Source of the DNA: a bacterium
GTDB taxonomy: Bacteria > Patescibacteriota > Minisyncoccia > Phycocordibacterales > UBA5272
Reading direction: 5' to 3'
DNA length: 64,000 nucleotides
Assembly (NCBI GenBank): GCA_027482685.1
Contig: JAIXVU010000009.1
Span: 14,866 to 78,865, forward strand
Part shown: positions 3,437 through 52,688 of the stretch, in pieces
Layout: each line of letters starts with the position of its first letter
Position numbering within the stretch: position 1 is the stretch's first letter
Notes under the pieces: generated by a model
Told to the model about the DNA's origin: nothing
The model's input: the letters and a program-made list of their open reading frames with translations, nothing else
Databases searched by the model: none
Translations under genes and position numbers: made by a program

Positions 3437-3479
3437 TGTGGAAAGGAGTAGGGTAAAGCAAATAACAGGAGTAAACTAT

Positions 3480-3977: not shown

Positions 3978-4042
3978 AATATGTGAAAAAACTTATACTG
4001 CTGTCCTCCTTAAATAGAATCTATGTTTATACCAAAAAGTAT

Positions 4043-21295: not shown

Positions 21296-21468
21296 CTCAT
21301 TTTCTGACTAAACATGTTTCGTATCTAAGACCGTTTTTTAATTTTATATATTTACGGTAAAACATAAACAAAACTCCGCATTAGTTGCGGAGTTTTGTTT
21401 TGCCGTGTAGGATTATCTCAGCCCCAGAAATGGGATTTCAGTTCGCTTTAAAATCAGAGGTGTACGTC

Positions 21469-22608
21469 ATGACAACTCAAAGTGTTGGTGCATTCAGTAA
21501 GGACGATCTGACGGCTTTTGTCGTCGCAGGCCGCATTGAAACCTTGGATGGGTTTGATCAAAAACACATCGGTTCTGCGTCAATTGATATTACCGTTGTA
21601 GACGGTGAGGCATACCGCGTTGAGCGCTTAGTGCGCCCGAGTGGAAAACGCGGTGAAAAAGTCCGTGATTTATTTCCTGCTTTGATGCCACGACCAGTTG
21701 AGCTTGGCACGGTACTTGTCCCAGGCGAAAAATATATCGCAAAAGCAACGCTCAACACTAACTTTCCTCCGGATGTCTATGCATATGCAAATGCCAAGTC
21801 AACAAGTGGGCGAAACATGTGTTTGTGTCGCACTCTTGCAGACGGGGTTGAGGGTTATGACACTCTGGATAGGAGGTGGAGTGGTTGGAGTGGTGAGGTC
21901 TGGCTTACAATTGAACCTCTCGTCTTCCCAATTATTCTCACAGACAAGGAATGTTATGCACAGGTGAGAGTTTTTGACGGGGATACTCGTTTCCAAGAAG
22001 AAGATTTGAGGCAAGAATTGATTAAGCAAGATTTACTGTATCGTCAAGATGGCGGTAGATATAAGCAGGGTGAGCTTGCGCTTGCTTCAGGTGATGGAAC
22101 AGTGTTCACGACGTTGTATGCAAAGGCTGGTAAGCTCGTCGGGTTTCGCGCAAGAAGGACCCGTAGACCGCTTCATCTCGAGGATAGAGGGCTTGATCCT
22201 CGTGAGTATTTCGAGCCAGTATACGCGGAGCTTGACCCAAGCGATTCAGATGGCGGGCTCATCACACTCGAACCAGGCTGGTACTACTTGCTGTCGACGA
22301 ACGAGACGCTTGATGTTCCTGAGCATTTGTGTGCTGAGCTTGTTATGCTTCATGCACGCTTCGGGTTGTTCTTCTCACACTTCGCAGGGTTCTTTGATCC
22401 TGGGTTTCGAGGAGTACCAACGCTTGAAGTGACGTGTCTTCTGCCCACCACGATGAGGCACCGTGAAGCTATCGGTTGTTTCCGCTATGAACGCATGCGC
22501 TCAGCGACTGAGTCCTATGCAAAGACGGGTAACTATAGCGGTCAGACTCGTACAACCCTCCCTAAGCAGTTTACAATGCCAGATGAGTGGCGTGCTGCTA
22601 TGGTGTGA
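21469..22608 (+). CDS. dCTP deaminase-like protein with a tandem dUTPase-fold (PF06559-type 2'-deoxycytidine 5'-triphosphate deaminase)
   Basis: The ORF is ~380-407 aa depending on start (ORF-track start 21385; alternative ATGs at 21430 and 21469). The GFFDPGFRG motif resembles the dUTPase/dCTP-deaminase GxxDxGYRG motif. The gene looks markedly GC-richer than its flanks by eye. Confidence 0.4.
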   Translation: MTTQSVGAFSKDDLTAFVVAGRIETLDGFDQKHIGSASIDITVVDGEAYRVERLVRPSGKRGEKVRDLFPALMPRPVELGTVLVPGEKYIAKATLNTNFPPDVYAYANAKSTSGRNMCLCRTLADGVEGYDTLDRRWSGWSGEVWLTIEPLVFPIILTDKECYAQVRVFDGDTRFQEEDLRQELIKQDLLYRQDGGRYKQGELALASGDGTVFTTLYAKAGKLVGFRARRTRRPLHLEDRGLDPREYFEPVYAELDPSDSDGGLITLEPGWYYLLSTNETLDVPEHLCAELVMLHARFGLFFSHFAGFFDPGFRGVPTLEVTCLLPTTMRHREAIGCFRYERMRSATESYAKTGNYSGQTRTTLPKQFTMPDEWRAAMV

Positions 22609-22677
22609 GCTCTGTTTTCCAAGCGGTCCTGTAGGGCCGCTTTTTCTTTTCTTTCTTTTTGTAGTAGAGTAGAAGGT

Positions 22678-23097
22678 ATGAAACTTTTTATAAAAAAATT
22701 ACGTAATGATGCAAGGTTGCCAACTCGTGCTCATGACGACGATGCAGGGATTGATTTATATGCGTGCGGTGAACATAAAGTTCCACCACATGCAACCGCA
22801 ATGATCCCAGCAGGTATTGCGCTTGAGATAGAAGAGGGCTATGTAGGGCTCATTTGGGACAAGTCATCAATTGGTTCTAAAAGTATGAAGACATTAGGTG
22901 GTGTTATTGACGCAGGCTATCGTGGTGAGATAACAGTAATGGTTCATAATTTGAACGATGAGCCATATACATTTGAAAACGGAAATAAAGTTGGTCAGAT
23001 GCTAATACAAAAAGTTGAATTCCCAGAAATTATAGAAGTAACTGAATTGTCAGAGTCTAAACGTGGAACAGGAGGATTCGGAAGTACTGGAAAATAG
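22678..23097 (+). CDS. dut: dUTP diphosphatase
   Basis: AGIDLYA and GVIDAGYRGEITV match dUTPase motifs; the ORF is 139 aa. Confidence 0.85.
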   Translation: MKLFIKKLRNDARLPTRAHDDDAGIDLYACGEHKVPPHATAMIPAGIALEIEEGYVGLIWDKSSIGSKSMKTLGGVIDAGYRGEITVMVHNLNDEPYTFENGNKVGQMLIQKVEFPEIIEVTELSESKRGTGGFGSTGK

Positions 23098-23187
23098 GCT
23101 TATATAGTTTTTGCAAAATCACAATCAAAAAGGTAGGATTGTGACGTACAGCTTGTATAGCTGATTGTTCCTACAGGAGATTGTAAC

Positions 23188-23748
23188 ATGTCAAAGCGTA
23201 CCGTTCAGGTAGTGTGTGCCATTTCTTCACCTGATGGAATTTTTGGTGAAGGGGATGGGTTGCCGTGGAAGTTCGGCAGACCAAACGAGGACTTCAAGAG
23301 GTTCAAAGATCTCACAGGTGAGACCACCAAGGGTTCTGTCATCATGGGACGTGCTACATGGGAATCACTACCGCTAAACTTTCGACCGCTTAAGGGACGA
23401 CAGAATATTGTCGTTACTCGTAATCTTGACTACTACGAAGAAGGCGCTGAGGTCTGCTACTCGTTAGACGAGGCGCTTGAGCGTGCAGAGTCGCCTACTA
23501 TCTCAATCATTGGTGGTAGAGAGTTGGTAAAAGAAGCGCTCGAACGGCATCTCATTGACGTTGCTCACATTACTGTGGTTGAAAAGACATTACCTTCAAC
23601 TGATGCTACGGTGTATTTTCCGCAGCTGTTATCGAGTGAGTTTCTTTTCCATCTTGCAAGCATCTCTGTTGAACAACATACACAAGCATTAGAAGATGGT
23701 GCTTTTGTTAACATTCTTTTCAAGAGATATGAACGTCGTGATACTTGA
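23188..23748 (+). CDS. folA: Dihydrofolate reductase
   Basis: GLPWKF, VIMGRATWESLP and NIVVTRN match DHFR motifs. Confidence 0.8.
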   Translation: MSKRTVQVVCAISSPDGIFGEGDGLPWKFGRPNEDFKRFKDLTGETTKGSVIMGRATWESLPLNFRPLKGRQNIVVTRNLDYYEEGAEVCYSLDEALERAESPTISIIGGRELVKEALERHLIDVAHITVVEKTLPSTDATVYFPQLLSSEFLFHLASISVEQHTQALEDGAFVNILFKRYERRDT

Positions 23749-23842
23749 ACTATCGCAGGGAAAGGGAAACGCGGCCGAGAGGCCGCGTTTTTTGTTATAA
23801 AAGAAAAGCCTTGTCCAAAGACAAGGCTTTCCACGTACAAGA

Positions 23843-24778
23843 TCAAAGCATTTCCGCCGGAATCTTTTCATGTGAACGGTATTTCTCAAGTCGAATATCA
23901 CGCATGGTGAATGAATCAATATCCGTGATATCAGGATTGAGCCAAAGTGTCGGAGCTTCAAGCGGTGTGCGAGAGAGTTGCTCTTTTACCTGGTTGCCGT
24001 GTCCACGAGTGTAGTTCTGTACTTTCTGCTCACCTTCAAGGGCAGCAAGATATACATGACAATCTTCAAGTGTCATGACCAGTTCTCCTGCAACCATGTC
24101 GACACACTGTGCAATCATGTGTAGCAATAATGCATAGCTTGCGATATTGAAGGGGACGCCAAGGAACATATCACAGGACCGCTGGTCCATTGAAAGATCC
24201 AAGAACATTTTGCCGCCTTGAGGATTGGGGCGGACAAAGAGCTGGAACTTCATGTGACAAGGTGGTAAGCACATGTCGTCAATCTCACCAGGGTTCCATG
24301 CATTCACGACATGGTAACGACTGAATGGATCATCTTTCAGTTGATTGATCACTTTCGTAATCTGGTCATAGGTTTTGCCTTGCGCATTGATCCAGTTACG
24401 CCATTGTGCCCCGTAGATGCGACCGCAGTCACCTTCAAACTTTGCTTTTCCTTGGGACGCAAACCGAGCTTGGTCATGCGTCCAGATGTTCCGTGCCTGA
24501 GGTGCTTTACCCATGTATTCATTTAGCTTGGCAAGTGATAATCTGTAACCCGAGTCTTCGCCGGCATCAAGGAACCACAGTAGTTCGGCTTTCACCACTT
24601 CAAATGCAAGGAATTTTGTGGTAACAGCAGGGAATCCTTTTAGCAAATCAAAACGCATCTGGTGTGCGAGTATCGCAGTTGTTACGCCGTTACGGGTTAC
24701 ACGCACTGACCCATTGACCATCGTCTCACGAAGTGCACCCAAGAAGACTTGTTCGTTTGGGTTAATAGAAGAGGTCAT
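23843..24778 (-). CDS. thyA: Thymidylate synthase (ThyA type)
   Basis: AHQMRFDL, LLWFL, and the active site PPCHMKFQLFV are present. The start is taken at MTSSINP, not the upstream ATG. Confidence 0.85.
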   Translation of the reverse strand: MTSSINPNEQVFLGALRETMVNGSVRVTRNGVTTAILAHQMRFDLLKGFPAVTTKFLAFEVVKAELLWFLDAGEDSGYRLSLAKLNEYMGKAPQARNIWTHDQARFASQGKAKFEGDCGRIYGAQWRNWINAQGKTYDQITKVINQLKDDPFSRYHVVNAWNPGEIDDMCLPPCHMKFQLFVRPNPQGGKMFLDLSMDQRSCDMFLGVPFNIASYALLLHMIAQCVDMVAGELVMTLEDCHVYLAALEGEQKVQNYTRGHGNQVKEQLSRTPLEAPTLWLNPDITDIDSFTMRDIRLEKYRSHEKIPAEML

Positions 24779-24943
24779 GTCTGACTCCTGTGAAAGTTGT
24801 TGAAAAATGAACTGCAAACAGCCGTATATACTGTACCGCTTTAAGCGTTGTTTAGCAATATTGCTCTATATATTAAAATTATGTACTCTTTATCTTGGAA
24901 TACAGTCATTCACTGTATGCTTACACAGTAAGGAGAAAGTACA

Positions 24944-25642
24944 ATGTTTGCAAGATTAATTGTCATTGAAGGATCTGATGGTGCGGGGAAGGAAACACAA
25001 GCCGATCTTCTGGCCGGCTCCTTCCGTTCGCAGGGTCGAACAGTTGCAAAGGTATCATTTCCTCGTTACCGAGAGACTCTGGGTGGGATGTTGATATGGG
25101 AGGTCCTCAAAAGTGATCGCGCCTATACGTATAACTTTGCAAAGAGCGACCCGAGATTGGCGAGCATGATGTATGCCGCAGACAGAAAAGAATCACTTCC
25201 TCTTCTTCGTCAACTGATTGAAAAAAACGATGTGGTCATTCTTGATCGTTACGTGGAGTCTAATCTTCTGCATCAGGGTGGCAAGTTTGCTACCGAAGAA
25301 GAGAGGATCCTGTTTGCAAAGTGGCTGTATGACCTTGAGTACGGAGATAACCATCTTCCGAAACCTCATAAGGTTGTCTATCTCTCGCTTCCATTCTGGC
25401 TGTCACGCAAACGTGCTGAGCTACGCGCAGCACAGACCGGCGGCACACTAGATGCAGTGGAGAGAGATACTGCCTACGTTAAGGCTGGGCATGAGTCAGG
25501 TCTTTTCTATGCCAATCACTTCGATTGGTCTGTAATTGATTGCCTTGAAGGCGAGAGAGAGCTTACCCGCGCAGAAGTGCACAAGAAGATATGCGACGTC
25601 GTTGACAATAGCTCGTTTACTCGCCATAAGCAGACGCCATAG
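24944..25642 (+). CDS. tmk: Thymidylate (dTMP) kinase
   Basis: The P-loop IVIEGSDGAGKETQ and LDRY motifs are present. Confidence 0.8.
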   Translation: MFARLIVIEGSDGAGKETQADLLAGSFRSQGRTVAKVSFPRYRETLGGMLIWEVLKSDRAYTYNFAKSDPRLASMMYAADRKESLPLLRQLIEKNDVVILDRYVESNLLHQGGKFATEEERILFAKWLYDLEYGDNHLPKPHKVVYLSLPFWLSRKRAELRAAQTGGTLDAVERDTAYVKAGHESGLFYANHFDWSVIDCLEGERELTRAEVHKKICDVVDNSSFTRHKQTP

Positions 25643-25728: not shown

Positions 25729-27495
25729 ATGAATGCATACACAGAAATATATAATTCTCTAAAAGAATTTGCCGGAGAGGCAAACTTTTCACTTGATATT
25801 TCTGAGAGCGTGGCGCATGGAGATTATGCAACTAACGTCGCTTTTGTTCTTAGTAAACAAAAAGGGGTGAGTCCTAAAGTATGCGCTGATGAATTGACAC
25901 AAACTCTAAAAGAAAAAATTTCGAATATTGTGAATGATATACAGGTAGCAGGTCCTGGATTTATCAACTTTTTCTTGCGAGATGATGTACTACGAAAAGA
26001 AAACGAGAGCAGTCAATTAAAATTGGTGACCAGCTATTCTGGTAAGAATATTCTTGTCGAGCACTCATCGCCAAATCTCTTCAAACCATTCTCAGTTGGA
26101 CATCTCATGAATAACATCATCGGTGAGTTTGTGGCACGAGCTGTAAAAGTAGGTGGTGCAAATGTGATGACAATGTCATTTCCGTCCGATGTATCGCTTG
26201 GTATTGCTAAGGCACTCATGATGATTGAAAGAGATATCAATAAACAAGAGATAACAATAGATTATTTTAATAATGAGCAGGAAGATGTTGTTATTAAATA
26301 TCTTGGTGAAGCATACGTAAGAGGTGTTAAAGCGTGTGAGGAAAATGAACAAAGTCTAGAAGATGCAAAAAAAGTTTTAGATAAATTATATAAACATACA
26401 AACACAGGAGGAATCATAGAAGATGAAACTTTTTATCAACTAGTTGGTCGTACGCGAATAATTAATGAGAATTATTTCAAGAAAGTTTTAGAAAGCATAG
26501 ATAGTAAGATTGATGCTTTTGTATATGAAAGTGAAGCTGGTAATGCTGGGCTAGAAATTGTTAAAGAAAATACAGGTGAAGGAAAAGTATTTACAGAAAG
26601 TGAAGGAGCTATTGTCTATATTCCACATGAAGATAGAAAAGATATTAATACGTCTGTATTTATTAATAGCCAAGGATATCCAACATATGAAGCAAAGGAT
26701 ATTGGATTAATTACTATTAAGTTTAGTGGAGCGTTTGGATTACAAAATGTTAAAGATTTTATACCAGAAGAGTCATTCTTTATAACAGACGCGGAACAGA
26801 TTTCACATTTCAAAGTGGTGTTAGATGCTGCTAGTAAACTAGGAGGTGATTGGCCAGAGTGGGTAGCAAAGAGTCACCATGTTCCACATGGACGTATGCT
26901 ATTCAAAGGAGCGAAGATGTCGAGTAGGTTAGGTGGTGTACCGCTTGCACTTGATGTGATCGGCGTTGTTGAGGAAGAGGTACGAGAACGAGCAGGTGAG
27001 AAAATTGCCCATCTTGGCGATGAGGAGAAGAAGAAGTTAGAACGTGATATAGCCCTCTCTGCGCTTCGTGTTGCAGTGCTACGTAGCAAGCCTGGGATTA
27101 ATATCAACTTTGATCCAGAGACGTCGCTATCATTTGAAGGGGACTCAGGACCATATCTTCTCTACACACACGCACGATGTAGTTCGTTGCTTGAAAAAGG
27201 CAAAGAGAAAGGATACGAGCCAATATTTGGAGATGTTGCATCTCTTCCTATCGAGCACGAGCTCGTAGCATTTGAGCTCGTACTTAAAGATGCGGTAGAG
27301 ACACTTGCTCCACAGAAGCTTGTCACGTATCTCTTCAAAGTTGCTCAGGCATTTAACTCATTTTATGGGAATACACAGATTGTTACTGATAACAAAGAAG
27401 AATCAGAGCACAGCCTCGCAATTGTAACTCGTGTGAAGTTTGTCCTCAAAGAAGGGCTCCATGTCCTTGGAATAAATGCTCCTGAGAGAATGTAG
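25729..27495 (+). CDS. argS: Arginyl-tRNA synthetase
   Basis: The 588-aa ORF has a class I core and a C-terminal DALR anticodon-binding domain. Confidence 0.8.
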   Translation: MNAYTEIYNSLKEFAGEANFSLDISESVAHGDYATNVAFVLSKQKGVSPKVCADELTQTLKEKISNIVNDIQVAGPGFINFFLRDDVLRKENESSQLKLVTSYSGKNILVEHSSPNLFKPFSVGHLMNNIIGEFVARAVKVGGANVMTMSFPSDVSLGIAKALMMIERDINKQEITIDYFNNEQEDVVIKYLGEAYVRGVKACEENEQSLEDAKKVLDKLYKHTNTGGIIEDETFYQLVGRTRIINENYFKKVLESIDSKIDAFVYESEAGNAGLEIVKENTGEGKVFTESEGAIVYIPHEDRKDINTSVFINSQGYPTYEAKDIGLITIKFSGAFGLQNVKDFIPEESFFITDAEQISHFKVVLDAASKLGGDWPEWVAKSHHVPHGRMLFKGAKMSSRLGGVPLALDVIGVVEEEVRERAGEKIAHLGDEEKKKLERDIALSALRVAVLRSKPGININFDPETSLSFEGDSGPYLLYTHARCSSLLEKGKEKGYEPIFGDVASLPIEHELVAFELVLKDAVETLAPQKLVTYLFKVAQAFNSFYGNTQIVTDNKEESEHSLAIVTRVKFVLKEGLHVLGINAPERM

Positions 27496-27546
27496 TTTCG
27501 TTTTTTATGGGACTGCTATATACTAAAAGTTATAATCTCTAAATAT

Positions 27547-28398
27547 ATGAACTTTAACGGAAAACCTCTTAGCCTTGATACAAGAGCACTTGACGCAGCG
27601 GGACTAGTTCCGATAGATACACCAGAAGCGGTAAAGGATACTCCAAAAACAGTAGCAGCAATTTTAGCAGGAGGTGACCCCGTGGAACTCGAGGCCCTTG
27701 ATGCAAAGTATGCAGTTCCTACCTCAACACCGTCTAATGTAACTCCTGAGACAGCAACTGAAGCACCTATTTCTACCCCAGAAGGGTTTAATGTTAAGCA
27801 AGCTCTAGGCAATGCTTCAACCATAGAAGAAATAATTGATATTGTTAAAAAGGGGCAAACAGATGGCATGTTTTTCGGTTACCCGGTAGATAAGGCACTA
27901 AGAGTCCTAACTGAAGGATATGGTCAGAATTTTCCTGATAGCGATGTTCAAAATGCTGTTTTTCGCTTTGAGAATAACACAGGGGCTAGAGATCTCGGTC
28001 CTACGGCTAAAGAAGAATGGTATAAAAAATACTTTGCATCCAAACAACCAATTGAAGATATTAACCCTGCAAAAGTTGCAGTGCTTGATTATAGAGAAGA
28101 GGGTATTCTAAAAGATCTTGAGACAGTAGATTGGTTAGATGGTTATGCTAATCTTTTTAGCCAACTAACAAAAGCAGATCCAGCTCAAAAACTTTCAGTC
28201 GAAAAAGTAAGAATGGCTGTTGGCGGACTTCTTGATTCCTTTAGTGGTGGAGGTCTTAGTGGTCCACTTAAAGAAATACATCTCAGAAAGTTTAATGAGG
28301 CATTAATTAAGTTGCCTTTGAGCGAGCAACAAAGGTTAAGGTATCTAAGTAACAAAAAGATTGAAGAAAAAACAAAAATTGCTAATTTTATTAAATAG
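27547..28398 (+). CDS. Hypothetical protein
   Basis: 283-aa ORF with no recognisable motif. Confidence 0.4.
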   Translation: MNFNGKPLSLDTRALDAAGLVPIDTPEAVKDTPKTVAAILAGGDPVELEALDAKYAVPTSTPSNVTPETATEAPISTPEGFNVKQALGNASTIEEIIDIVKKGQTDGMFFGYPVDKALRVLTEGYGQNFPDSDVQNAVFRFENNTGARDLGPTAKEEWYKKYFASKQPIEDINPAKVAVLDYREEGILKDLETVDWLDGYANLFSQLTKADPAQKLSVEKVRMAVGGLLDSFSGGGLSGPLKEIHLRKFNEALIKLPLSEQQRLRYLSNKKIEEKTKIANFIK

Positions 28399-28439
28399 TT
28401 AAAATTATTTTTCTTGCGTTACTATGTATGTATCTGCTA

Positions 28440-28762
28440 CTATAGAAAGATAATGCAATGAAGGGACTAATCACCCCAGAGCAGTGGGAAGAACCCCATC
28501 TCAAGTTTTGAATAATAGTAATTTCTAAACAAAGCTGGAGATGGGAAGTAGAGCCCAAGTAAATAAGCCCCCCACCAATTTTGTAAAGATACTATTGAGT
28601 AATGTATAAAGTATAGAAAATATATTTTATTGAATGAAAAATAAACTAGGACAAAATTAGTGGGGGGGAATCAAGGTGGTACCACGACAAAAAGCTTTCT
28701 TTACAAGTCGTCCTTGGAAAAGAGTTCAATACGAATTCTTTTCTGTGGACGACTTTTACTTT
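28440..28762 (+). promoter_or_regulatory. T-box riboswitch leader with an Ile (AUC) specifier upstream of ileS
   Basis: A T-box-like AATCAAGGTGGTACCACG lies at 28669-28686. The specifier context CTAATCA has codon ATC at 28470-28472. A terminator GTCGTCC...GGACGAC plus a T-run at 28707-28760 sits just before the ileS start. Confidence 0.6.
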
Positions 28763-28769
28763 TATAATC

Positions 28770-31700
28770 ATGAACGACAACAAACCAAAATCAGTTAATG
28801 AAAAAGAACTAGAGACACTTGCTTTCTGGCAAGAGAATCACATCTTTGAAAAGTCAGTTGCAACTCCCGCAGGAGATATTTCAAAAGGAGCATATTCATT
28901 TTATGATGGGCCACCATTTGCAACAGGGCTTCCTCACCATGGATCACTTATGGCAGGGACGGTGAAAGATGTTATTCCTCGGTATCAGACAATGAAAGGG
29001 AATAGTGTTCGTCGTGTGTGGGGGTGGGATTGTCATGGGCTACCGATTGAGAACTTGATTGAAAAGAAGCTCGGGTTAAGGAGTAAGAAGGATATTGAGG
29101 AATACGGAATTGATAAATTTAATCGTGATGCATATGAGAGTGTGCTAGAGTACGAGGAAGAATGGAAGAGTATTATTCCACGAGTAGGTAGATGGGTTGA
29201 TATGGAGCATCCATACAAAACAATGGATGCAACGTATACCGAAAGTATATGGTGGGCGTGGAAGACACTCTACGAGAAAGGTCTCGCATACGAAGGGAAT
29301 AAGATGATGCACATCTGTCCGAGATGTGAGACACCACTTGCACAATCTGAGGTTGGTCTTGAATATACTGATGTCACAGATATATCGGTGACGGCAAAGT
29401 TTGAGCTTGCGGATGAGCCGGGGACATTTGTTCTTGCGTGGACAACTACTCCGTGGACATTACCAGGGAATACTGCTCTTGCTGTGAATAAGGATATTAT
29501 TTATGCAAAAGTAAAAACTATTGTAGAAGGACATACATCTCATTATATTTTAGCGAAAAGTAAAATAGAAGAATATTTTAAGAATGATACCACTATAGAA
29601 ATTATAGAAGAATTTGCTGGCGATACACTTATTGGAAAATCATACAATCCAGTATTCCCATATTTTATAGACAAAGAAATTGAAAACAAAAAAAACATTT
29701 GGAAGATTTGGCATGCGGATTTTATAACAGAAGATGCAGGAACTGGTATTGCGCATGAAGCACCAGCGTTTGGTGCAGAAGATATGGAGCTTGCAAAAGC
29801 ACATAACATTCCGATTATCAAACACGTAAAAATGGACGGAACATTCACCTCTGATGTTGCAGATTTTGCCGGAATGAAAGTGAAGCAGAAAGATGATACA
29901 CAATCTGCTGATATAGAGATCATCAAATGGCTTGCACATAATGGCAAGTTATTTGAGAAGCATAAGATAATTCACTCATATCCGCTCTGTTGGAGGTGCA
30001 AGACACCGCTACTTAACTACGCAACATCATCATGGTTCGTTGATGTTCCAAAGATGAAAGATAAACTCATAGCAGAAAACCAAAAGATAGGCTGGACCCC
30101 AGAACACATTAGAGATGGGAGGTTCGGTAAGTGGCTAGAAGGCGCTCGTGAATGGGCAGTATCACGAACACGTTACTGGGGAGCACCGCTTCCTGTATGG
30201 AAGTCAGATGATGGAGATATGAAAGTTATCGGCTCACTTAAAGAGCTTGCTGAATTTTCAACCAAGAAACCAAAAAATATATATTTTGCAGTTCGTCATG
30301 GTGAGTCACTTAGTAATATCAATCATGTACTTGATACACATCGTGATCCAGATAACCATCTGACTGAACGTGGTCGCGAGCAGGCAAAACATGCAGGGGA
30401 GTTCGCAAAGACTAAAGGAGTAGATGTTATCTTGGCTTCGCCATATGTACGTACACAAGAAACAGCCACTATCATTGGTGAGCATCTAGGGGTTCCTGTT
30501 ATTACGCATGAAGATTTGCAGGAGTTTAACGTTGGTATCTTTTCAGGAAAGAGTGTTGATGATTTGCATGCGTATCAACATACAAACATTCATTCATTTG
30601 ATGACCGTATAGAAAAAGGTGAGTCATATCGTGATGTCATGTATCGTATGATGCGAGTAGTTCATGAGTGTGAAGAAAAGTATGAAGGGAAGAAAATACT
30701 TTTCGTGACACATGGCTCACCACTATGGATGTTCCAGATGACAGCAACGCTTACAACAGATGAGGACATGATGAAGGATGTGTTAAGCAAAGAAGATGTT
30801 TCACCAGCAAATGGTCATGTTTTCCACATAACACCGTATATCGTTCCGCGTGACGAAACAGGAGCCGTTAATCTCCATCGTCCATATATTGATAGTGTAG
30901 AACTTACAATTGATGGAAAGATATATAAGCGAATACCTGATGTGTTTGATTGCTGGTTTGAGTCAGGGTCCATGCCGTTTGCATCGATTCATTATCCATT
31001 TGAGAACAGAGAAGTCTTTGACAAAAATTATCCTGCAGACTTTATCGCAGAGAGCATGGACCAGACACGTGGATGGTTTTATTCATTAATCAACTTAGGT
31101 GTTGGTTTATTTGACAAAGCACCATACAAGCATGTTATTTGTAATGGCTTAATTAATGCAGCAGACGGGAAAAAGTTAAGTAAGAGTCTCAGTAACTACA
31201 CCGACCCATTACTCTTGGTCGAGAAGTTCGGTGCAGATGCCTTTAGATATTATTTAATGTCTAGCCCTGTTGTAAAAGGCGAAGGAGTTAACTTTGATGA
31301 TAAAGAGTTAGAAGATGTATACAAAAAGTGTGTGAGTCGTCTTGATAATGTTGTTCAATTGTACGAGATGAATAAACCAGAGAGTGTTGTTGCAAAAAAT
31401 ACTTCACCAAAAGTTCTTGATATCTGGATGGTATCTCGCGTTCATGAGGTGGTTCGTGATGCAACACTTGGATATGATGCGTACAAGTTAGATGAGGCGA
31501 CACGAGGGATTGCAGGCATCATTGATGATGTATCTGTGTGGTATACACGCAGGTCACGCGACCGTTTGAAGGGGGATACAGGAGTAGAAGACCAGTTGTT
31601 TGCTTACGAGACTCTGACTTATGTTCTACAGAGTCTTGCAAAAGTTATGGCACCCGTTATGCCGTTTATTGCTGAGCGGGTATATCAAGGCGCAGGCGGC

Positions 31701-32204
31701 AAAAAAGAATCAGTTCATCTAGAGAGTTGGCCAGAAGTGGGTGAAATTAATAATAATGTCCTTACATCGATGAAGCAAACTCGTGATCTTGTTTCAGAAG
31801 TATTGATGACACGAAATAAACTAAATATTCCTGTTCGACAACCACTCGCAACACTGACTATATCCTGTACAATTACAGATGAGTATCTTGATATCATTAA
31901 AGATGAAGTTAATGTCAAAAATATTATACGAGGTGATACGATGTTACTTGATACAGTGATTACCCCAGAATTACAAACTGAAGGAGATATTCGTAATCTA
32001 ATGCGCGCCATTCAAGACGCTCGTAAACAGATGGGGCTTTCACCTAGAGATGAAGTTAAACTTATAACGTCATACTCTATACCAGAGCTACATACAGCAG
32101 AACTTATGAAGACTTGTAATGTAGTACAAATAGAAAATGGAGAAGGAGAGTACAAAGCTGAGACAGTAACCGGCACTGTTGTATTTGGACTAACTAAAAT
32201 CTAA
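28770..32204 (+). CDS. ileS: Isoleucyl-tRNA synthetase (type 2) carrying an inserted histidine-phosphatase (PGAM-like) domain
   Basis: HHG/HIGH-like PHHGSLMAG, KMSKS (KLSKSLSNY), and the CP1 editing domain are present. Residues ~504-690 (nt ~30279-30836) carry the RHGESxxN and THG histidine-phosphatase motifs between WAVSRTRYWGAPLPVW and DCWFESGSMPF. Confidence 0.85.
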   Translation: MNDNKPKSVNEKELETLAFWQENHIFEKSVATPAGDISKGAYSFYDGPPFATGLPHHGSLMAGTVKDVIPRYQTMKGNSVRRVWGWDCHGLPIENLIEKKLGLRSKKDIEEYGIDKFNRDAYESVLEYEEEWKSIIPRVGRWVDMEHPYKTMDATYTESIWWAWKTLYEKGLAYEGNKMMHICPRCETPLAQSEVGLEYTDVTDISVTAKFELADEPGTFVLAWTTTPWTLPGNTALAVNKDIIYAKVKTIVEGHTSHYILAKSKIEEYFKNDTTIEIIEEFAGDTLIGKSYNPVFPYFIDKEIENKKNIWKIWHADFITEDAGTGIAHEAPAFGAEDMELAKAHNIPIIKHVKMDGTFTSDVADFAGMKVKQKDDTQSADIEIIKWLAHNGKLFEKHKIIHSYPLCWRCKTPLLNYATSSWFVDVPKMKDKLIAENQKIGWTPEHIRDGRFGKWLEGAREWAVSRTRYWGAPLPVWKSDDGDMKVIGSLKELAEFSTKKPKNIYFAVRHGESLSNINHVLDTHRDPDNHLTERGREQAKHAGEFAKTKGVDVILASPYVRTQETATIIGEHLGVPVITHEDLQEFNVGIFSGKSVDDLHAYQHTNIHSFDDRIEKGESYRDVMYRMMRVVHECEEKYEGKKILFVTHGSPLWMFQMTATLTTDEDMMKDVLSKEDVSPANGHVFHITPYIVPRDETGAVNLHRPYIDSVELTIDGKIYKRIPDVFDCWFESGSMPFASIHYPFENREVFDKNYPADFIAESMDQTRGWFYSLINLGVGLFDKAPYKHVICNGLINAADGKKLSKSLSNYTDPLLLVEKFGADAFRYYLMSSPVVKGEGVNFDDKELEDVYKKCVSRLDNVVQLYEMNKPESVVAKNTSPKVLDIWMVSRVHEVVRDATLGYDAYKLDEATRGIAGIIDDVSVWYTRRSRDRLKGDTGVEDQLFAYETLTYVLQSLAKVMAPVMPFIAERVYQGAGGKKESVHLESWPEVGEINNNVLTSMKQTRDLVSEVLMTRNKLNIPVRQPLATLTISCTITDEYLDIIKDEVNVKNIIRGDTMLLDTVITPELQTEGDIRNLMRAIQDARKQMGLSPRDEVKLITSYSIPELHTAELMKTCNVVQIENGEGEYKAETVTGTVVFGLTKI

Positions 32205-32817: not shown

Positions 32818-34689
32818 ATGGACCCTCTTAAAAAACCTTCCCAAGGAAGCGCTCTAGATAGAATTGAAAATACACTGTATGATCCGAAGAAAAAACCGGA
32901 TGATTTTATGATGCATCAATCACGGGATAAAGTAGCGAAAGAGTTGCCAAGCTCTTGGGGAGATACAACTGCTGTTATTACGCCAACAACAATCAAAGAA
33001 AAAACATCACTTGGCGTAAAGTTACTTATAGTTTCAAGCATACTGCTTGTCGCATCACTATCATTTACTGCGTGGCGAGTACTGTCATCTCAAAATGTTA
33101 TTTCATCAGATAATATTGATATAGCATTACAAGTTTCTCCATACATTGAAGGAGGAGAAGATACTCCGCTGTATGTAACTCTTACGAATAAAAATAAAGT
33201 CTCTCTTGATGTTTCTTCTCTTACTGTGATGTATAAAAAAGGGGTGAGTGCCCAAGATGAAGAAGAAAAAGTAAATGATAAAAAAGATACAGGCAGTATA
33301 ATCGCAGGAGGACAGATAAACCAAACATTCATGGTTTCACTCTTTGGTAGTGAAGGAGAGTCACGAGATATTATTGTGAAGTTCGATTACAAGGTGCCTG
33401 GATCAAACGCTGTCTTTAGTAAGACAGTTTCAACATCGGTCACCATGAAAACCCCGCCTGTTGCTGTTAGTATTGATGGACCGCCTACACTTTCTGTAGG
33501 ACAGGAAGGGGTATTTTCTTTTTCTGTTAAAAACAATACAGCAAGTAGCACAAAAGAAAATCTTTTAGCGCTTACGCTTCCTAATAGTTTCGTCGTTACA
33601 AATGCTTCCCCAAAGGCGCTTAGTCGTAGTACTTCGTTTGTTGTTCCTCCGCTTGAGTCTGGAAAAATATATACAGTAACAGTAACAGGAGCATTTAATG
33701 GGACAGAGGGTGAAGTGACTACAATGAAAGCGATTGTCGGTCCAGAAGGGACTACTCCAACTGCTGTTGGTATTGTGTATGGAACACAGACATATGACGT
33801 TAAGCTCCGCACCTCCCCACTTCTTGTCACTGTAAGTCTTAATACTGATAGAGGGGTATCTGACTCACTTCGTTACGGGGATATAGCGAATCTTACTATT
33901 GCGTACAAAAATACAACAGAAACACTCATTAAAGATATTGATATTAGTGTGGCTTTACAAGGAGAAGCGATTATTGATAAGGATATTCAACCAGAGTCAG
34001 GTTACTATGATTCCGTCAAAAGAGTTATTACATGGGATGCTTCTATTCTGCCAGATTTTGGAACACTTCAACCTCAAGCAGAAAAGACTCTTCGAGTACG
34101 CGTCCCAATAGTACTTAAGGGTAACAACTCACCCAAGCTTGTGCTTGCTATTAATGGTAATGGAACTCTTGTAACAAAAAATGATATTGTTACAAAAGTA
34201 CAGAAGTCATACGCCGTACAAGGAAGTGCGAGTGTGCAAGCTCTTGCAACGTACAAAAATTCTCCAGCTCCGAATCTCGGCCCTATCCCACCAGTTGTTA
34301 ATACTGATACAACATACAACGCACGAGTCATCGTCTCTGCACAAAATGCACTTTCTGATGCATCAGTTACATTTTCGCTTCCGGTATATGTAACATGGCG
34401 TAGCATCGTTGCTGGTAACCTTGATGTCACCTATGATCCTAGATCACGTCTTGTAACATGGAATATAGGTAAAATGGAAGCTGGTAAAACAATTACCTTA
34501 AATGCAGGACTTACTTTTAAGCCATCTCAAAGTCAGGTAGGGCAAATTCCACCACTTACATCTGCTGTTATTTTAAATGCTACAGAAGAAGTATCCCGTG
34601 CGTCAATCCGTACCACTATCTCTCCTATCACAACCTCAATAGCTGGAGAAGTTTGGCCAGTTGATGAAGCTCGCGTTGTTGACAGATAG
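32818..34689 (+). CDS. Large membrane-anchored extracellular protein
   Basis: A single TM helix near residue 70 is followed by ~540 aa of beta-rich sequence. Confidence 0.45.
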   Translation: MDPLKKPSQGSALDRIENTLYDPKKKPDDFMMHQSRDKVAKELPSSWGDTTAVITPTTIKEKTSLGVKLLIVSSILLVASLSFTAWRVLSSQNVISSDNIDIALQVSPYIEGGEDTPLYVTLTNKNKVSLDVSSLTVMYKKGVSAQDEEEKVNDKKDTGSIIAGGQINQTFMVSLFGSEGESRDIIVKFDYKVPGSNAVFSKTVSTSVTMKTPPVAVSIDGPPTLSVGQEGVFSFSVKNNTASSTKENLLALTLPNSFVVTNASPKALSRSTSFVVPPLESGKIYTVTVTGAFNGTEGEVTTMKAIVGPEGTTPTAVGIVYGTQTYDVKLRTSPLLVTVSLNTDRGVSDSLRYGDIANLTIAYKNTTETLIKDIDISVALQGEAIIDKDIQPESGYYDSVKRVITWDASILPDFGTLQPQAEKTLRVRVPIVLKGNNSPKLVLAINGNGTLVTKNDIVTKVQKSYAVQGSASVQALATYKNSPAPNLGPIPPVVNTDTTYNARVIVSAQNALSDASVTFSLPVYVTWRSIVAGNLDVTYDPRSRLVTWNIGKMEAGKTITLNAGLTFKPSQSQVGQIPPLTSAVILNATEEVSRASIRTTISPITTSIAGEVWPVDEARVVDR

Positions 34690-34726: not shown

Positions 34727-35779
34727 ATGGATATGAAAGACACTATACGTATCACCATTAGCACAAGCACCTTTATCAAAGCTATTTTGCTTGTAATTTT
34801 GTTTGCAGGGATTTTTTATGCACACGATTTCTTTATTGCGCTTTTAGTCGCAGTCGTTTTAGCTTCTGCGGTAGAGATGCCAGTTCGGTGGCTTATGAAA
34901 TGGGGGGTTCCACGAGCTTTTGCTGTGACCCTCTTACTTGTCTCACTTATTGGTATTATTGCAAGTTTTCTATTTGTACTCCTTCCGCCACTTGCAGATG
35001 ATCTTGCACAATTTGTGAAGTCACTTCCTAAACTTCTAGAGTCTATACGCATTTTTGGAAAAGATTTAGGATTTAAAGATTTATCTCTTTCTATCCAGAG
35101 TCTTTCACAAGATATATCTAAAGGCCAGATCCTTACTGTTATTAAAAATACTCTTTTTGGTAGTAGTGGCTTCTTTGCAACAACGACTGCAGTAATAGGA
35201 GGGGTGTTTAATGTTTTGCTTACTTTTATTTTAGCGTTTTATCTAGCGCTTGAAGATAATGGGGTGCAAAAGTTTTTGAGTTTAGTTGTCCCGAAAAGAG
35301 AGGAGAAATATATTGAAGACCTCTGGAATAGATCACAGAGAAAGATTGGTCTATGGATGCAAGGACAATTATTACTTTCAATCTTTGTTGCACTTCTTGT
35401 CTATGTGCCGATGCTTGTTCTTGATATGCCATATGCAGCGCTTCTTGCAGTGCTTGCATTTTTCGGAGAGCTTATTCCAGTAGTCGGTCTTACGTTTGCT
35501 ACTATACCTGCATTATTCATCGCATATGCGACAGGTGGTGTGGAATTGCTCGGTATAGTAGCGCTCATCTACTTTATCATTGGACAACTTGAAGGTAATG
35601 TTTTGTACCCACGTGTGATGAGTAAGATGGTTGGTGTTCCATCAATAATTGTTCTAATTGGTGTTGTACTGGGGGCAAAATTTGCAGGTATATGGGGTAT
35701 CATTTTATCAGTACCACTGGCTGCTGTGTTTATGGAGCTCGCGTCTGATGTTCAGAAAAGAAAGTCACATGAAGGGTAA
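34727..35779 (+). CDS. AI-2E family (UPF0118/PerM) transporter
   Basis: The 8-TM topology and conserved C-terminal block are typical of AI-2E. Confidence 0.55.
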   Translation: MDMKDTIRITISTSTFIKAILLVILFAGIFYAHDFFIALLVAVVLASAVEMPVRWLMKWGVPRAFAVTLLLVSLIGIIASFLFVLLPPLADDLAQFVKSLPKLLESIRIFGKDLGFKDLSLSIQSLSQDISKGQILTVIKNTLFGSSGFFATTTAVIGGVFNVLLTFILAFYLALEDNGVQKFLSLVVPKREEKYIEDLWNRSQRKIGLWMQGQLLLSIFVALLVYVPMLVLDMPYAALLAVLAFFGELIPVVGLTFATIPALFIAYATGGVELLGIVALIYFIIGQLEGNVLYPRVMSKMVGVPSIIVLIGVVLGAKFAGIWGIILSVPLAAVFMELASDVQKRKSHEG

Positions 35780-37250
35780 TGATACTAAACAATTTTATAT
35801 AACTACCACACTTCCATATGTGAATTCAGATCCGCATATTGGGTTTGCTATGGAAATAATTCGCGCGGATGTTATTGCAAGATATAAGAGGTTACTTGGG
35901 AATGATGTATTTTTTAACACAGGAACTGATGAACACGGAGCAAAGATTTATGAGAATGCAGTAAAAGAAGGGGTTGAAGTTCAAGCATATGTTGACGGAT
36001 ATGCAGAGAAGTTCAAAGAGCTTACGAAAATTCTTAATATCCAAGATGTGCGTTTTATTCGCACTACTGATGAGAAGCATGTGAAAGCTGCCCAAGAAAT
36101 GTGGAAACGCTGTTATGATAACGGGTATATTTATAAGAAAACATATCAGACGAAGTACTGTGTCGGATGTGAGCTAACTAAGACAGATAGTGAGCTTGAT
36201 CATGGTAAATGCCCGATACACCCAAACCGTGAGATTGAACTGATTGATGAAGAGAATTATTTCTTTAAGTTTTCTGAGTTTCAAAAGCCATTACTTGAGT
36301 TTTATCAAAGTCATCCAGATTTTGTCGTGCCAGATTTTAGATATAATGAGATTAAGGCATTTGTTGAGCGTGGACTTGAAGACTTTTCTATCTCACGACT
36401 GAAAGAGAAGATGCCGTGGGGGGTGCCGGTGCCTAATGATGCTTGCGACAAAGGTGATGAGAATAGTCATGTGATGTATGTGTGGTTTGATGCGCTTACG
36501 AGCTACGTCTCGACACTTGGTTGGCCTAACGGAGACGACTTTACGAAGTATTGGGCGCAAGATGGAAATGATAACCGCAAGGTGATTCAGTACTGTGGTA
36601 AGGACAACCTGCGACAACAGTCTGCAATGTGGCAGGCGATGCTCATGGCATCAGGTTTACCTAATTCATCACAGATAATTATTGATGGATTCATTACAAG
36701 TGGCGGACAGAAGATGAGTAAGTCTGTTGGCAATGTCATCAGCCCGTTTGATGTTATAGAGATGTTTAAAGAAGTGACCGACTACCCAGAAGATGTTCTG
36801 CGTTTTGTGTTGCTCCATGATATTTCATCATTTGAAGATGGAGATATAACAATAGAAGGTATTAAAGAAAGTTACCAAGCACATCTTGCAAATGGAATTG
36901 GAAATCTTACAAGTCGTATCATGAAGATGGCGACAAGTAATGAAGTTCGCAGTAAAGAGCAAGAAGTAAGTAGTAAAGTTGAGATAGTAGATTTTGATCT
37001 TAATCATTCATTAAAAAAAATAATTGAAGAGATAAGTAGTATTGATGAATATATTGCCACTAATGAACCTTTCAAAGTTGTTAAGGTTGATGAGGTTAAG
37101 GGGAAAGAAATGATTGTACATTGTCTATCCTCACTTGAGTTAGTTGCAAACAGACTTGCTCTTTATCTCCCAAATACTTCAGCAAAAATTATTGAATGCA
37201 TCCGTGAGAATAAAATGCCAGAAAAGCCATTATTTGGCAGGCTTTCATAA
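35769..37250 (+). CDS. metG: Methionyl-tRNA synthetase
   Basis: YVNSDPHIGFAME is the HIGH-region equivalent, KMSKSVGNV is present, and there are four zinc-knuckle Cys. The start is ATG 35769, overlapping the previous gene by 11 nt. Confidence 0.85.
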   Translation: MKGNDTKQFYITTTLPYVNSDPHIGFAMEIIRADVIARYKRLLGNDVFFNTGTDEHGAKIYENAVKEGVEVQAYVDGYAEKFKELTKILNIQDVRFIRTTDEKHVKAAQEMWKRCYDNGYIYKKTYQTKYCVGCELTKTDSELDHGKCPIHPNREIELIDEENYFFKFSEFQKPLLEFYQSHPDFVVPDFRYNEIKAFVERGLEDFSISRLKEKMPWGVPVPNDACDKGDENSHVMYVWFDALTSYVSTLGWPNGDDFTKYWAQDGNDNRKVIQYCGKDNLRQQSAMWQAMLMASGLPNSSQIIIDGFITSGGQKMSKSVGNVISPFDVIEMFKEVTDYPEDVLRFVLLHDISSFEDGDITIEGIKESYQAHLANGIGNLTSRIMKMATSNEVRSKEQEVSSKVEIVDFDLNHSLKKIIEEISSIDEYIATNEPFKVVKVDEVKGKEMIVHCLSSLELVANRLALYLPNTSAKIIECIRENKMPEKPLFGRLS

Positions 37251-51878: not shown

Positions 51879-51974
51879 TTTACTTAATACTACATAAGTA
51901 TTAGAATTAGGTCATACAATTGAATATAAGTAGCCTAAACCAGTGAGTAATCGCTGGCATGGTGAATAAGACCG

Positions 51975-52688
51975 TTGAAGATAAAAAACCCATCATGTGG
52001 GATTTGTCTTCAACGGCCATATCTGGAAACGGATATGGAGAGCGTAAGCTCTCACTCACGTGGTGGGCTTTTTGTATTCTCACCACTTACTAAACATTAT
52101 TTTATGACTACACAGAAAAATAAAAAACATAGTGTGTGGGGATGGGTGCTAGTAGGGTTTGGGGCACTGCTTTTACTTACTAAAGCGTTCTCGCTGGCGT
52201 TACTTGTCCTACTAGGGGGCTGCCTATTAATTATCAATAAAAAAGCAAAGGTTGGAGATGGTGACAAAGAGGTGTTGAAGGCTAAAGCGAGTAAGCAACG
52301 AAAATATCTTTTTGTTTCATTTGTAATTGCATACTTTAGCTTTTCTGTATTTAACTACTTCCAAAATCTTCCTGCAGAAGAAGTGAAGACTGTTGTTTCT
52401 CCAGAGCAAAAGCAAAAAGATCTTCAAACACTAAAAGAGACTATGGCTATTCTGACAGAAAACAAACTAGCCACTTCATACGAGTTTTCAGAAAATGCAA
52501 ATGTTGTTTATGTAAGTGGCAAGTGGTACGGCTTGACAGCTCAAGAAAAGAAAGAGTTGCTAACTAGTATTGGTAATGTAAAAGATGTAGCAACTGGATA
52601 TCGTTGGTTTGAAGTAAGAGATGCTTACTCAGATGAGTTGGTTGCTAAGGTGACTGCATTCACTGGCTCGGTGGAGATTTATAAGTAA
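51975..52688 (+). CDS. Hypothetical membrane protein (island cargo operon, gene 3)
   Basis: A TM segment WVLVGFGALLLLTKAFSLALLVLLGGCLLII is present. An alternative start is at 52104. A terminator hairpin GCACCCTCTCCATTGCTGGAGAGGGTGC follows at 52869-52896. Confidence 0.45.
   Translation: MKIKNPSCGICLQRPYLETDMESVSSHSRGGLFVFSPLTKHYFMTTQKNKKHSVWGWVLVGFGALLLLTKAFSLALLVLLGGCLLIINKKAKVGDGDKEVLKAKASKQRKYLFVSFVIAYFSFSVFNYFQNLPAEEVKTVVSPEQKQKDLQTLKETMAILTENKLATSYEFSENANVVYVSGKWYGLTAQEKKELLTSIGNVKDVATGYRWFEVRDAYSDELVAKVTAFTGSVEIYK

Follow-up and report, generated by a model that had tools for sequence, protein, structure and literature searches.

Aminoacyl-tRNA synthetases (aaRS) are among the most conserved proteins, and the domains added to them have been well studied in eukaryotes, where they give new signaling functions. 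Type-2 isoleucyl-tRNA synthetases (IleRS), which include P. megaterium IleRS2 (8C8V), the T. thermophilus enzyme (1ILE) and the eukaryotic cytosolic enzymes, share a body made up of a Rossmann fold with the HIGH and KMSKS signatures, the CP1 editing domain, CP2, CP3, the anticodon-binding domain and C-terminal domains, with CP3 spanning about 55-80 residues. Small histidine phosphatases such as PhoE/YhfR from Geobacillus stearothermophilus (1EBB, 1H2E), CobC, PspA and Rv2419c (GpgP) are free-standing proteins of about 190-210 amino acids (aa). Here we describe ileS from a 64,000-nucleotide stretch of a Patescibacteriota genome (contig JAIXVU010000009.1, positions 14,866 to 78,865; hereafter the window, in whose numbering all coordinates are given). 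Its product has the same body as the type-2 enzymes, but its CP3 is interrupted by an enzyme of about 190 residues and its HIGH signature reads HHGS. The interrupting enzyme has the fold and the catalytic set (RHG, SPxxR, E, HG) of the PhoE-like phosphatases, but unlike them it is wired by its N- and C-termini into CP3 of an aaRS, and its cap is not conserved. An initial annotation, made from the letters of the window, had seen a histidine phosphatase domain inside IleRS and had rightly placed the DNA in the candidate phyla radiation (CPR).

A Pfam search of the segment bore out the phosphatase assignment. His_Phos_1 (PF00300) matched aa 507-660 with an E value of 3e-36, and the translation of 30279-30836 alone, which is the extent that the initial annotation gave and corresponds to aa 504-689, matched with 8e-38; these borders fit the domain well, and overall the match reached 125-130 bits against a gathering score of 21.7. 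The RHGES and THGS motifs (aa 509-513 and 647-650), which had been read as a histidine phosphatase catalytic core, align with the core of PhoE/YhfR (PDB 1EBB/1H2E), the closest solved protein by sequence (E 7e-13), such that R509/H510, R561, E585 and H648 of the insert fall on the equivalents of PhoE R9/H10, R59, E83 and H151. An AlphaFold2 (AF2) model of the domain alone had a mean predicted local distance difference test score (pLDDT) of 94.8, and in the full-length model (mean pLDDT 86) the blocks of the insert reached 90-98. Foldseek matched the modeled domain to small branch-1 phosphatases with a probability of 1.00, a template modeling (TM) score of about 0.75 and a root-mean-square deviation of 2.2-2.8 A, the best matches being Rv2419c-like hydrolases, PspA, CobC, PhoE and the riboflavin-pathway HFP, followed by cofactor-dependent phosphoglycerate mutases (dPGMs). 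Sequence, catalytic core and a modeled alpha/beta fold of the dPGM type together identify the insert as a member of branch 1 of the histidine phosphatase superfamily, and we regard its nesting in CP3 as practically beyond doubt. The parts of the gene are as follows, with the basis of each assignment in brackets; conservation refers to an alignment of the 120 best IleRS homologues (64-76% identical, 1138-1214 aa, from NCBI, JGI, ENA and Logan).

28770 to 32204, plus strand: ileS, type-2 IleRS with a nested phosphatase domain, 1144 aa (continuous open reading frame)
28935 to 28946, plus strand: HIGH signature in the variant form H-H-G-S, with the fourth His replaced, aa 56-59 (motif reading)
29367 to 29984, plus strand: CP1 editing domain, approximately aa 200-405 (aa 199-405 match the T. 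thermophilus IleRS editing domain 1wk8)
30153 to 30200, plus strand: conserved block WAVSRTRYWGAPLPVW, the CP2-CP3 linker, aa 462-477 (nearly all columns invariant)
30201 to 30278, plus strand: N-terminal half of CP3, a beta-hairpin and helix, KSDDGDMKVIGSLKELAEFSTKKPKN, aa 478-503 (AF2 model)
30279 to 30839, plus strand: inserted branch-1 histidine phosphatase domain, aa 504-690 (Pfam, PhoE match, AF2 and Foldseek)
30294 to 30305, plus strand: RHGE motif with R509 and the predicted nucleophile H510 (conservation, PhoE alignment)
30450 to 30452, plus strand: R561, predicted second arginine of the phosphate pocket, in the SPxxR motif (aligns with PhoE R59)
30522 to 30524, plus strand: E585, predicted general acid (aligns with PhoE E83)
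30711 to 30713, plus strand: H648, predicted second catalytic histidine, in the THG motif (conservation)
30840 to 30947, plus strand: C-terminal half of CP3, including VPRDETGAVNLHRPYID, aa 691-726 (conservation, comparison with P0283)
30948 to 30980, plus strand: conserved block DCWFESGSMPF, return to the Rossmann fold, aa 727-737 (motif and conservation)
31173 to 31187, plus strand: KMSKS signature, here KLSKS, aa 802-806 (motif reading)
31374 to 31412, plus strand: loop aa 869-881, empty in the window IleRS and called site 2 in its relatives (alignment and AF2 model)

The host enzyme was classified from profile scores and structural relatives. The window protein matched the NCBIfam ileS model TIGR00392 with 820.7 bits against a cut-off of 621.4, the match being split around the insert, and Pfam found tRNA-synt_1, Anticodon_1 and DUF5915 in addition to His_Phos_1. 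Its closest solved relatives were the human and yeast enzymes and P. megaterium IleRS2, with E values of 1e-190 to 1e-204 for IleRS2 and eukaryotic IleRS versus 3e-81 for type-1 IleRS (S. aureus). The ileS equivalog score and the type-2/eukaryote-like best relatives identify the host by sequence as a type-2 IleRS, in agreement with the earlier assignment. The class I signatures and the CP1 editing domain are present, with HIGH only in the variant form HHGS; HHG(S/T) or HAGT occurs in 39 of 120 IleRS family members, and the remaining members have HxGH. The HHGS of the window IleRS is reminiscent of IleRS2, in which changes to the HIGH motif are linked to mupirocin hyper-resistance (title of PDB 8c8w).

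The insert follows the beta-hairpin and first helix of CP3 (…VIGSLKELAEFSTKKPKN) and precedes VPRDETGAVNLHRPYID, with the N-terminal half of CP3 forming strands 476-479 and 484-486 and a helix at 490-496 in the AF2 model. Between the WAVSRTRYWGAPLPVW block and DCWFESGSMPF we counted 249 residues, close to the roughly 250 first estimated; measured motif to motif, the spacing is 268 aa in the window IleRS versus 79 aa in P0283, an IleRS without an insert at this position (site 1). Alignment to human IARS1 jumps from query aa 504 to aa 701 at IARS1 residues 498/499, and alignment to P. megaterium IleRS2 jumps from aa 495 to aa 699 at residues 476/485. Since these structure alignments skip 0-9 residues on the structure side, the segment is not a stretch that has diverged but a cleanly inserted piece of about 190-197 aa, and with the single frame of the 1144-aa gene this sustains the claim of a true domain insertion. 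After the insert, the 120-sequence alignment shows no variation at P693, R694, D695, G698, H703, R704 or P705; the PR(D/N)xxG..LHRP segment is also present in P0283, which lacks the site-1 insert and where it reads …SLIELQKKSQKELPRNDAGEVDLHRPYID, and thus belongs to IleRS, not to the insert. In the more divergent relatives L085 and L086 the CxxC…CxxC zinc motif of CP3 is kept, and the phosphatase lies between its halves.

CP3 comprises residues 473-534 in C. albicans IleRS, and its topology varies among solved IleRS structures (PMC7191050). In yeast IleRS it comprises residues 459-526, directly after the conserved SRxRYWG 'CP2-3 linker', and the yeast segment equivalent to WAVSRTRYWGAPLPVW, residues 453-465, is named 'linker CP2-3' (PMC7955072). 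In the human LARS1:IARS1 complex, CP3 is exposed and serves for protein docking (PMC13439101). It is plausible that CP3 is a permissive insertion site. One detail of the initial annotation was imprecise: it had placed the insert adjacent to the KMSKS region, but KLSKS lies about 100 residues past the insert end, and it had suggested an effect on adenylate chemistry by proximity, which the sequence does not indicate for an insert in the peripheral CP3 subdomain.

Scores against curated families placed the insert below the threshold of every named enzyme tested. The dPGMs are about 230-250 aa long and carry a mutase-specific insert and a C-terminal tail; our domain of only about 187 aa reached 82-86 bits with NF038349 (cut-off 225) and 25 bits with TIGR01258 (cut-off 81.7). 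The scores for CobC (TIGR03162, 73-79 bits, cut-off 162.9), PspA (NF045917, 65-71 bits, cut-off 350) and SixA (TIGR00249, 38.5 bits, cut-off 74.5) likewise fell short, and the insert did not reach the curated equivalog threshold for GpmB. By these scores the insert is a generic small histidine phosphatase, an orthologue of no known enzyme among the curated families tested. As for the known pyrophosphatase (PPase) folds, namely family I (PF00719), family II (DHH) and the membrane H+-PPase, Pfam showed only aaRS domains and His_Phos_1 in the window IleRS; the PPase role proposed below is thus a matter of possible activity and not of kinship with these families.

Conservation within the insert was concentrated at its predicted active site. 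In the 120 close homologues, R509, H510, N516, R561, E585, E618, R626 and H648 are invariant, the mean frequency of the top residue is 0.60 in the insert versus 0.85 and 0.72 in the N- and C-terminal parts of IleRS, so that no part of the protein evolves faster than the insert, and almost no column is conserved in the cap region (aa ~590-616). Among 179 diverse copies of the domain, all 173 complete ones have RHGE, the other six being N-terminally cut fragments, and the R561 position holds R in 179 of 179. The E585 position holds E in 164 copies, D in 14 and Q in one, the lone Q belonging to a copy fused to ATP sulfurylase, and the H648 position is H in all 176 copies that reach it. As read from these alignments, the catalytic residues of the insert are under purifying selection, and the pattern is typical of an enzyme with preserved chemistry and a presumed substrate-contacting cap that is free to vary. 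An invariant catalytic set despite a drifting insert counts against a purely structural role, and we consider it very probable that the insert is catalytically active. The unconserved cap more weakly suggests that the substrate is recognized mainly via its phosphate group or groups.

The insert proved to be widespread. PF00300 was found in all 120 of the best IleRS homologues, and in GTDB, where the data set held one genome per species, at least 576 species genomes matched; in all of the best 80 of these the match covered the insert and both flanks, with the phosphatase inside the ileS reading frame. Record titles of the matches named Nomura-, Kaiser-, Wolfe-, Adler-, Taylor-, Yonath- and Lloydbacteria, Paceibacterota/Paceibacteria and Minisyncoccia, and the matches cover the Parcubacteria/Paceibacteria, including metagenome-assembled genomes deposited in 2015-16, with some records carrying the label Saccharibacteria. 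Going by these sequences, Paceibacteria species with the insert number in the hundreds at least. When the insert alone was searched exhaustively against 1.84 billion representatives at 50% identity, 13,557 matches were obtained; of the top 150, about two thirds were whole or fragmentary IleRS that have the domain in the same place. The IleRS flanks of those top representatives were very divergent (E 1e-99 to 1e-265, local comparison), indicating that the arrangement is old. A word-indexed protein search with the insert only had returned free-standing phosphatases of at most 39% identity and, by a limit of the index, had missed even the identical protein P0035; the full-length and exhaustive representative searches corrected this result, and the fusion is not rare.

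This distribution bears directly on whether the gene could be an artefact or a selfish element, meaning a chimera, a frameshifted neighbor or an intein-like element absent from the mature protein. In favor of this there is only the length of the gene, which is unusual. The same architecture recurs in hundreds of independent assemblies (NCBI, JGI, ENA, Logan), which excludes the chimera or frameshift at the domain borders that the initial annotation had named as a possible flaw, and the frame is continuous with native codon usage. The codon-usage correlation of the insert is 0.69 versus 0.71 +/- 0.05 for random chunks of the same gene, and its GC content and its GC content at third codon positions are indistinguishable from those of the remainder of ileS. 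No intein or Hint family was matched in Pfam, and the junctions (...KKPKN/IYFAVRHGE and ...HITPYI/VPRDETG) lack the Cys/Ser/Thr or His-Asn residues of splicing, in line with the earlier statement that the insert is not an intein. Together with the purifying selection read from the catalytic columns, these results leave the probability of an artefact negligible. No repeats flanking the insert were found, and the repeat and composition scans gave no trace of a recent insertion event. A neighbor-joining tree of 175 domain copies was star-like, with free-standing and inserted forms intermixed. In a neighbor-joining tree of the IleRS bodies (no outgroup, no support values) two insert-less enzymes nest among insert-bearing ones, and enzymes with two inserts form one clade. 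Neither tree is robust, and neither is used here to infer the number or direction of events at site 1.

The same phosphatase subfamily also exists outside CP3. Its free-standing genes encode 189-205 aa and lie immediately upstream of ileS in five of eight informative neighborhoods (L083, L091, L092, L093/94, L098/99), with a gap of at most about 10 nt or an overlap in four of these and about 120 nt in L093/94. In three of the five (L083, L091, L098/L099) argS is directly upstream of the phosphatase gene, giving the order argS-phosphatase-ileS with gaps of 1 and 9 nt in L098/L099, and the complete ileS genes behind the free-standing phosphatase in L083 (931 aa) and L098 (962 aa) are without the insert. 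L095 has the order argS, small ORF, phosphatase gene. For the inserted form, argS ends <3 kb upstream of ileS in 51 of the 60 GTDB loci with a visible upstream region. In one GTDB genome (L015) a second, divergent His_Phos_1 gene (3377-4246, plus strand, ~270 aa, LILVRHGQSEGN…) stands between argS and the ileS with the CP3 insert.

Fusions were found at several further positions. Site 2 in IleRS is the loop between the post-KMSKS helix and the anticodon-binding domain, which in the AF2 model of the window enzyme (aa ~869-881) runs between helices 844-868 and 882-903. In P0169, P0214, P0236, P0192 and P0283 a phosphatase falls between the residues aligning with window aa ~855 and ~880; the first four carry it in addition to site 1, and in P0283 it is the only insert. 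Tandem pairs occur at site 1 in P0244, P0163, P0245 and P0194, and IleRS with two phosphatase domains reach 1379-1468 aa. In the ValRS P0310 the domain follows DTWFSSGLW.FSTLGWP, a third distinct class-Ia site, and the ValRS fragment P0155 has four copies. P0224 carries the domain directly after the ArgRS C-terminus. TsaC (threonylcarbamoyl-AMP synthase) bears it at the C-terminus in four clusters at 90% identity (JGI, NCBI, Logan, ENA); this recurrence comes from the protein search, as a metagenome scan with the TsaC fusion, which used exact 8-mer patterns, gave phosphatase-domain matches only. ATP sulfurylase bears it at the N-terminus, on a 114-kb contig and beside a sulfotransferase, and free tandem di-domain phosphatases exist as well. 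The distinct attachment sites establish several independent fusions.

These arrangements could also arise if the domain were a passenger, a housekeeping phosphatase (acting, for example, on sugar phosphates, phosphoserine or nucleotides) that has nothing to do with aminoacylation and became attached to an essential, highly expressed neighbor, with the argS-phosphatase-ileS operon of tiny genomes as the source and CP3 merely a permissive surface loop. CPR proteins do fuse promiscuously, as shown by TsaC with MGMT, TruB, NUDIX, GNAT and 2H domains, and the ArgRS fusion reads as plain read-through of neighboring genes across a 1-nt gap. The variable topology of CP3 between IleRS structures, its use as a docking surface in humans, the unconserved cap, and closest characterized relatives that are broad-specificity or metabolic phosphatases would all suit such a history. 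Yet among the 150 closest cluster representatives there is no unrelated partner, all heterologous ones being adenylate-forming; internal insertion is impossible by simple read-through and nevertheless occurred at three or more different class-Ia sites; and the linkage to ileS persists for the fused and the separate phosphatase alike. We regard a passenger as possible but somewhat doubtful, and a functional tie of the phosphatase to aaRS and other adenylate-forming enzymes as probable.

The gene product is predicted to be a working type-2 IleRS with a complete histidine phosphatase in surface-exposed CP3, and the phosphatase may stay co-expressed in stoichiometric amounts with, and near to, ATP-dependent adenylate-forming enzymes. 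No two cases share an attachment geometry and the linkage is dispensable, which would mean no fixed geometric coupling to the IleRS active site; varied attachment points and a dispensable covalent link argue for coupling by co-expression or proximity, not through a defined channel. The substrate would be a small diffusible phosphorylated compound, or otherwise one unrelated to aminoacylation. The heterologous partners among the 150 closest representatives are IleRS (two sites), ValRS, ArgRS, TsaC and ATP sulfurylase. Synthesis of aminoacyl-AMP, threonylcarbamoyl-AMP (TC-AMP) and adenosine 5'-phosphosulfate always releases inorganic pyrophosphate (PPi), a product that drives these syntheses backward and that has to be removed for ATP sulfurylase in particular. 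Because PPi is the one product common to every fusion partner, it was chosen as the likeliest substrate. It would be hydrolyzed by H510 through a phosphohistidine intermediate, and its removal would pull amino-acid activation forward. The whole reading, an active histidine phosphatase beside adenylate-forming enzymes that acts on a diffusible product, most likely PPi, is reasonable but tentative; PPi taken by itself as the substrate is possible, on the doubtful side. We think it unlikely that this subfamily is the main or only cytoplasmic PPase of the Paceibacteria, which would make it a new, metal-independent PPase class on the phosphoglycerate-mutase fold, repeatedly joined to, or set beside, PPi-producing enzymes in the course of evolution.

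Several observations weigh against PPi hydrolysis coupled to adenylate formation. We know of no branch-1 histidine phosphatase that is an inorganic pyrophosphatase; the sole PPase-active member of the superfamily that we found is a branch-2 amoebic enzyme (PMC7926622), and an H+-PPase is shown in the published drawing of at least one Parcubacterium (PMC5220378). In Patescibacteria, TsaC/Sua5 is a hub for fusions, most of its relatives (P0314-P0427) having a C-terminal PF01035 domain (O6-methylguanine methyltransferase DNA-binding) and others TruB, 2H/cyclic phosphodiesterase (PF07823, PF13563), NUDIX, GNAT or PF02245, so that its fusion to so many unrelated domains weakens the argument from fusion partners. 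The ArgRS fusion P0224 is a read-through of the argS-phosphatase gene order and not independent evidence. Two free-standing homologues are not near any aaRS gene, one lying between adk and secY and the other beside a DsbD-like gene. Given the adjoining sulfotransferase, hydrolysis of the 3'-phosphate of 3'-phosphoadenosine 5'-phosphate (pAp) fits the ATP sulfurylase fusion equally well. A search for family I PPase with an E. coli Ppa query found nothing in the window and 99 loci (1.0 Mb); it has no statistical power and was not used as evidence.

The pAp activity forms part of a broader possibility, that the domain is a 2'/3'-phosphatase acting on the tRNA 3' end or on pAp, which would restore damaged tRNA for charging or clear an inhibitor. 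In its favor, the work of four of the five partner types involves tRNA or tRNA modification, other TsaC proteins of the same bacteria have 2H/cyclic phosphodiesterase domains as their fusion partner, the sulfotransferase beside the ATP sulfurylase fusion uses 3'-phosphoadenosine 5'-phosphosulfate and would produce pAp, and in NCBIfam the insert resembles PRK07238, an RNase H/acid phosphatase fusion, in its phosphatase half. Attachment points as varied as CP3 and the distal end of the ArgRS anticodon-binding domain speak against delivery of a bound tRNA end. The product of TsaC is TC-AMP, and the enzyme has no action on the tRNA 3' end; we also know of neither a common route to a phosphate on A76 nor an RNA-repair enzyme of this fold. 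We judge a 3'-end or pAp role distinctly unlikely.

Even less probable, in our view very much so, is a protein phosphatase that reverses an inhibitory phosphorylation of the synthetase or its partner, as a counter to HipA/HipT-like toxin kinases that target aaRS, or a module for ArgRS-IleRS dimerization or docking. Branch-1 does include protein phosphatases such as PGAM5/Sts and SixA, whose model TIGR00249 the insert matches weakly. Docking would accord with the role of CP3 as a protein-protein interface in the human multi-synthetase complex (PMC13439101) and with the ArgRS and IleRS genes that flank the free-standing form. However, no kinase partner was seen in the neighborhoods examined, the ATP sulfurylase and TsaC fusions fit neither version, and invariance of all five catalytic residues would not result from a purely structural role. 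Action on a diffusible product of adenylate formation, with PPi the first candidate, thus remains our preferred reading.

In the window, ileS keeps the conserved gene order of argS, a 283-aa hypothetical gene and ileS, with the hypothetical gene standing in the place that the free-standing phosphatase takes in relatives:

25729 to 27495, plus strand: argS, ArgRS of 588 aa without a phosphatase domain (Pfam Arg_tRNA_synt_N, tRNA-synt_1d and DALR_1)
27547 to 28398, plus strand: hypothetical 283-aa gene (no Pfam match)

Six-frame translation of 27400-28800, the argS-ileS interval, contained no phosphatase remnant. A 500-aa MetRS without insert is encoded at 35748-37250, 3.5 kb beyond ileS; a 12-kb span thus contains three genes for class I aaRS, and the phosphatase is in ileS only. 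Directly upstream of argS is a thymidylate cluster (21430-25642) of dCTP deaminase-like, dUTPase, DHFR, thymidylate synthase (minus strand) and thymidylate kinase genes. After a RecO-like gene, a 623-aa protein (32818-34689, plus strand) has weak DUF11/adaptin-like matches only and looks like a surface protein. Farther along are a LOOT RNA (Rfam RF03000) at 51932-52053 on the plus strand, with 96.7 bits against a gathering score of 46.4, and a tmRNA match at 56840-57356 on the minus strand, whose 517 nt versus a 374-position model probably reflect extra inserted sequence.

The window gene is thus a real, ancient and widespread composite enzyme of known kinds, an aaRS with an accessory domain and a histidine phosphatase. 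Its architecture is visible in precomputed public Pfam lists and yet appears undescribed and unstudied: we found no description of an aaRS-histidine phosphatase fusion in the full-text literature (subscription journals not covered), and the fused proteins carry generic database names, 'isoleucyl-tRNA synthetase', 'class I tRNA ligase family protein' or 'hypothetical protein', the second of these being an example of how annotations conceal composite enzymes. A second, apparently active enzyme nested in the catalytic body of a bacterial aaRS and fixed across a CPR class is unusual, and the occurrence of the same phosphatase as a separate gene, a terminal fusion and an internal insert at several sites amounts to a natural experiment, in which coupling of the phosphatase to amino-acid activation is directly testable. 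If PPi is the substrate, the domain would add a new class to the pyrophosphatases and account for the way in which adenylation is driven in ultra-small cells, and if the subfamily were the main or only cytoplasmic pyrophosphatase, the window gene would encode a self-driving synthetase that destroys its own inhibitory product. Another substrate would expose a hidden requirement of translation in these organisms. In either case the insert is a clean lineage marker for Paceibacteria IleRS.

Beside the type-2 IleRS and the PhoE-like phosphatases, three described systems come closest to this arrangement. The NCBIfam family ileS_w_GNAT (NF040702) is a precedent for a bacterial IleRS with a second catalytic domain, there an acetyltransferase; the window IleRS scores 285 bits against its cut-off of 1999 and is not a member. 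In the RNase H/acid phosphatase proteins (PRK07238; M. tuberculosis Rv2228c type), whose phosphatase half matches the insert with an E value of 1e-22, a CobC-like histidine phosphatase is joined to a nucleic-acid enzyme, but this is an end-to-end fusion with another partner in another lineage, whereas the phosphatase of the window is a nested insertion; to our knowledge the functional link between the halves of PRK07238-type fusions is likewise unresolved. ATP sulfurylase-pyrophosphatase fusions occur in some eukaryotes, and added PPase routinely drives aminoacylation in vitro. Whereas the eukaryotic fusions use a metal-dependent family I PPase and the window candidate is a metal-independent histidine phosphatase with a proposed PPase role, both would follow the same logic, the removal of PPi tethered to an adenylate-forming enzyme.

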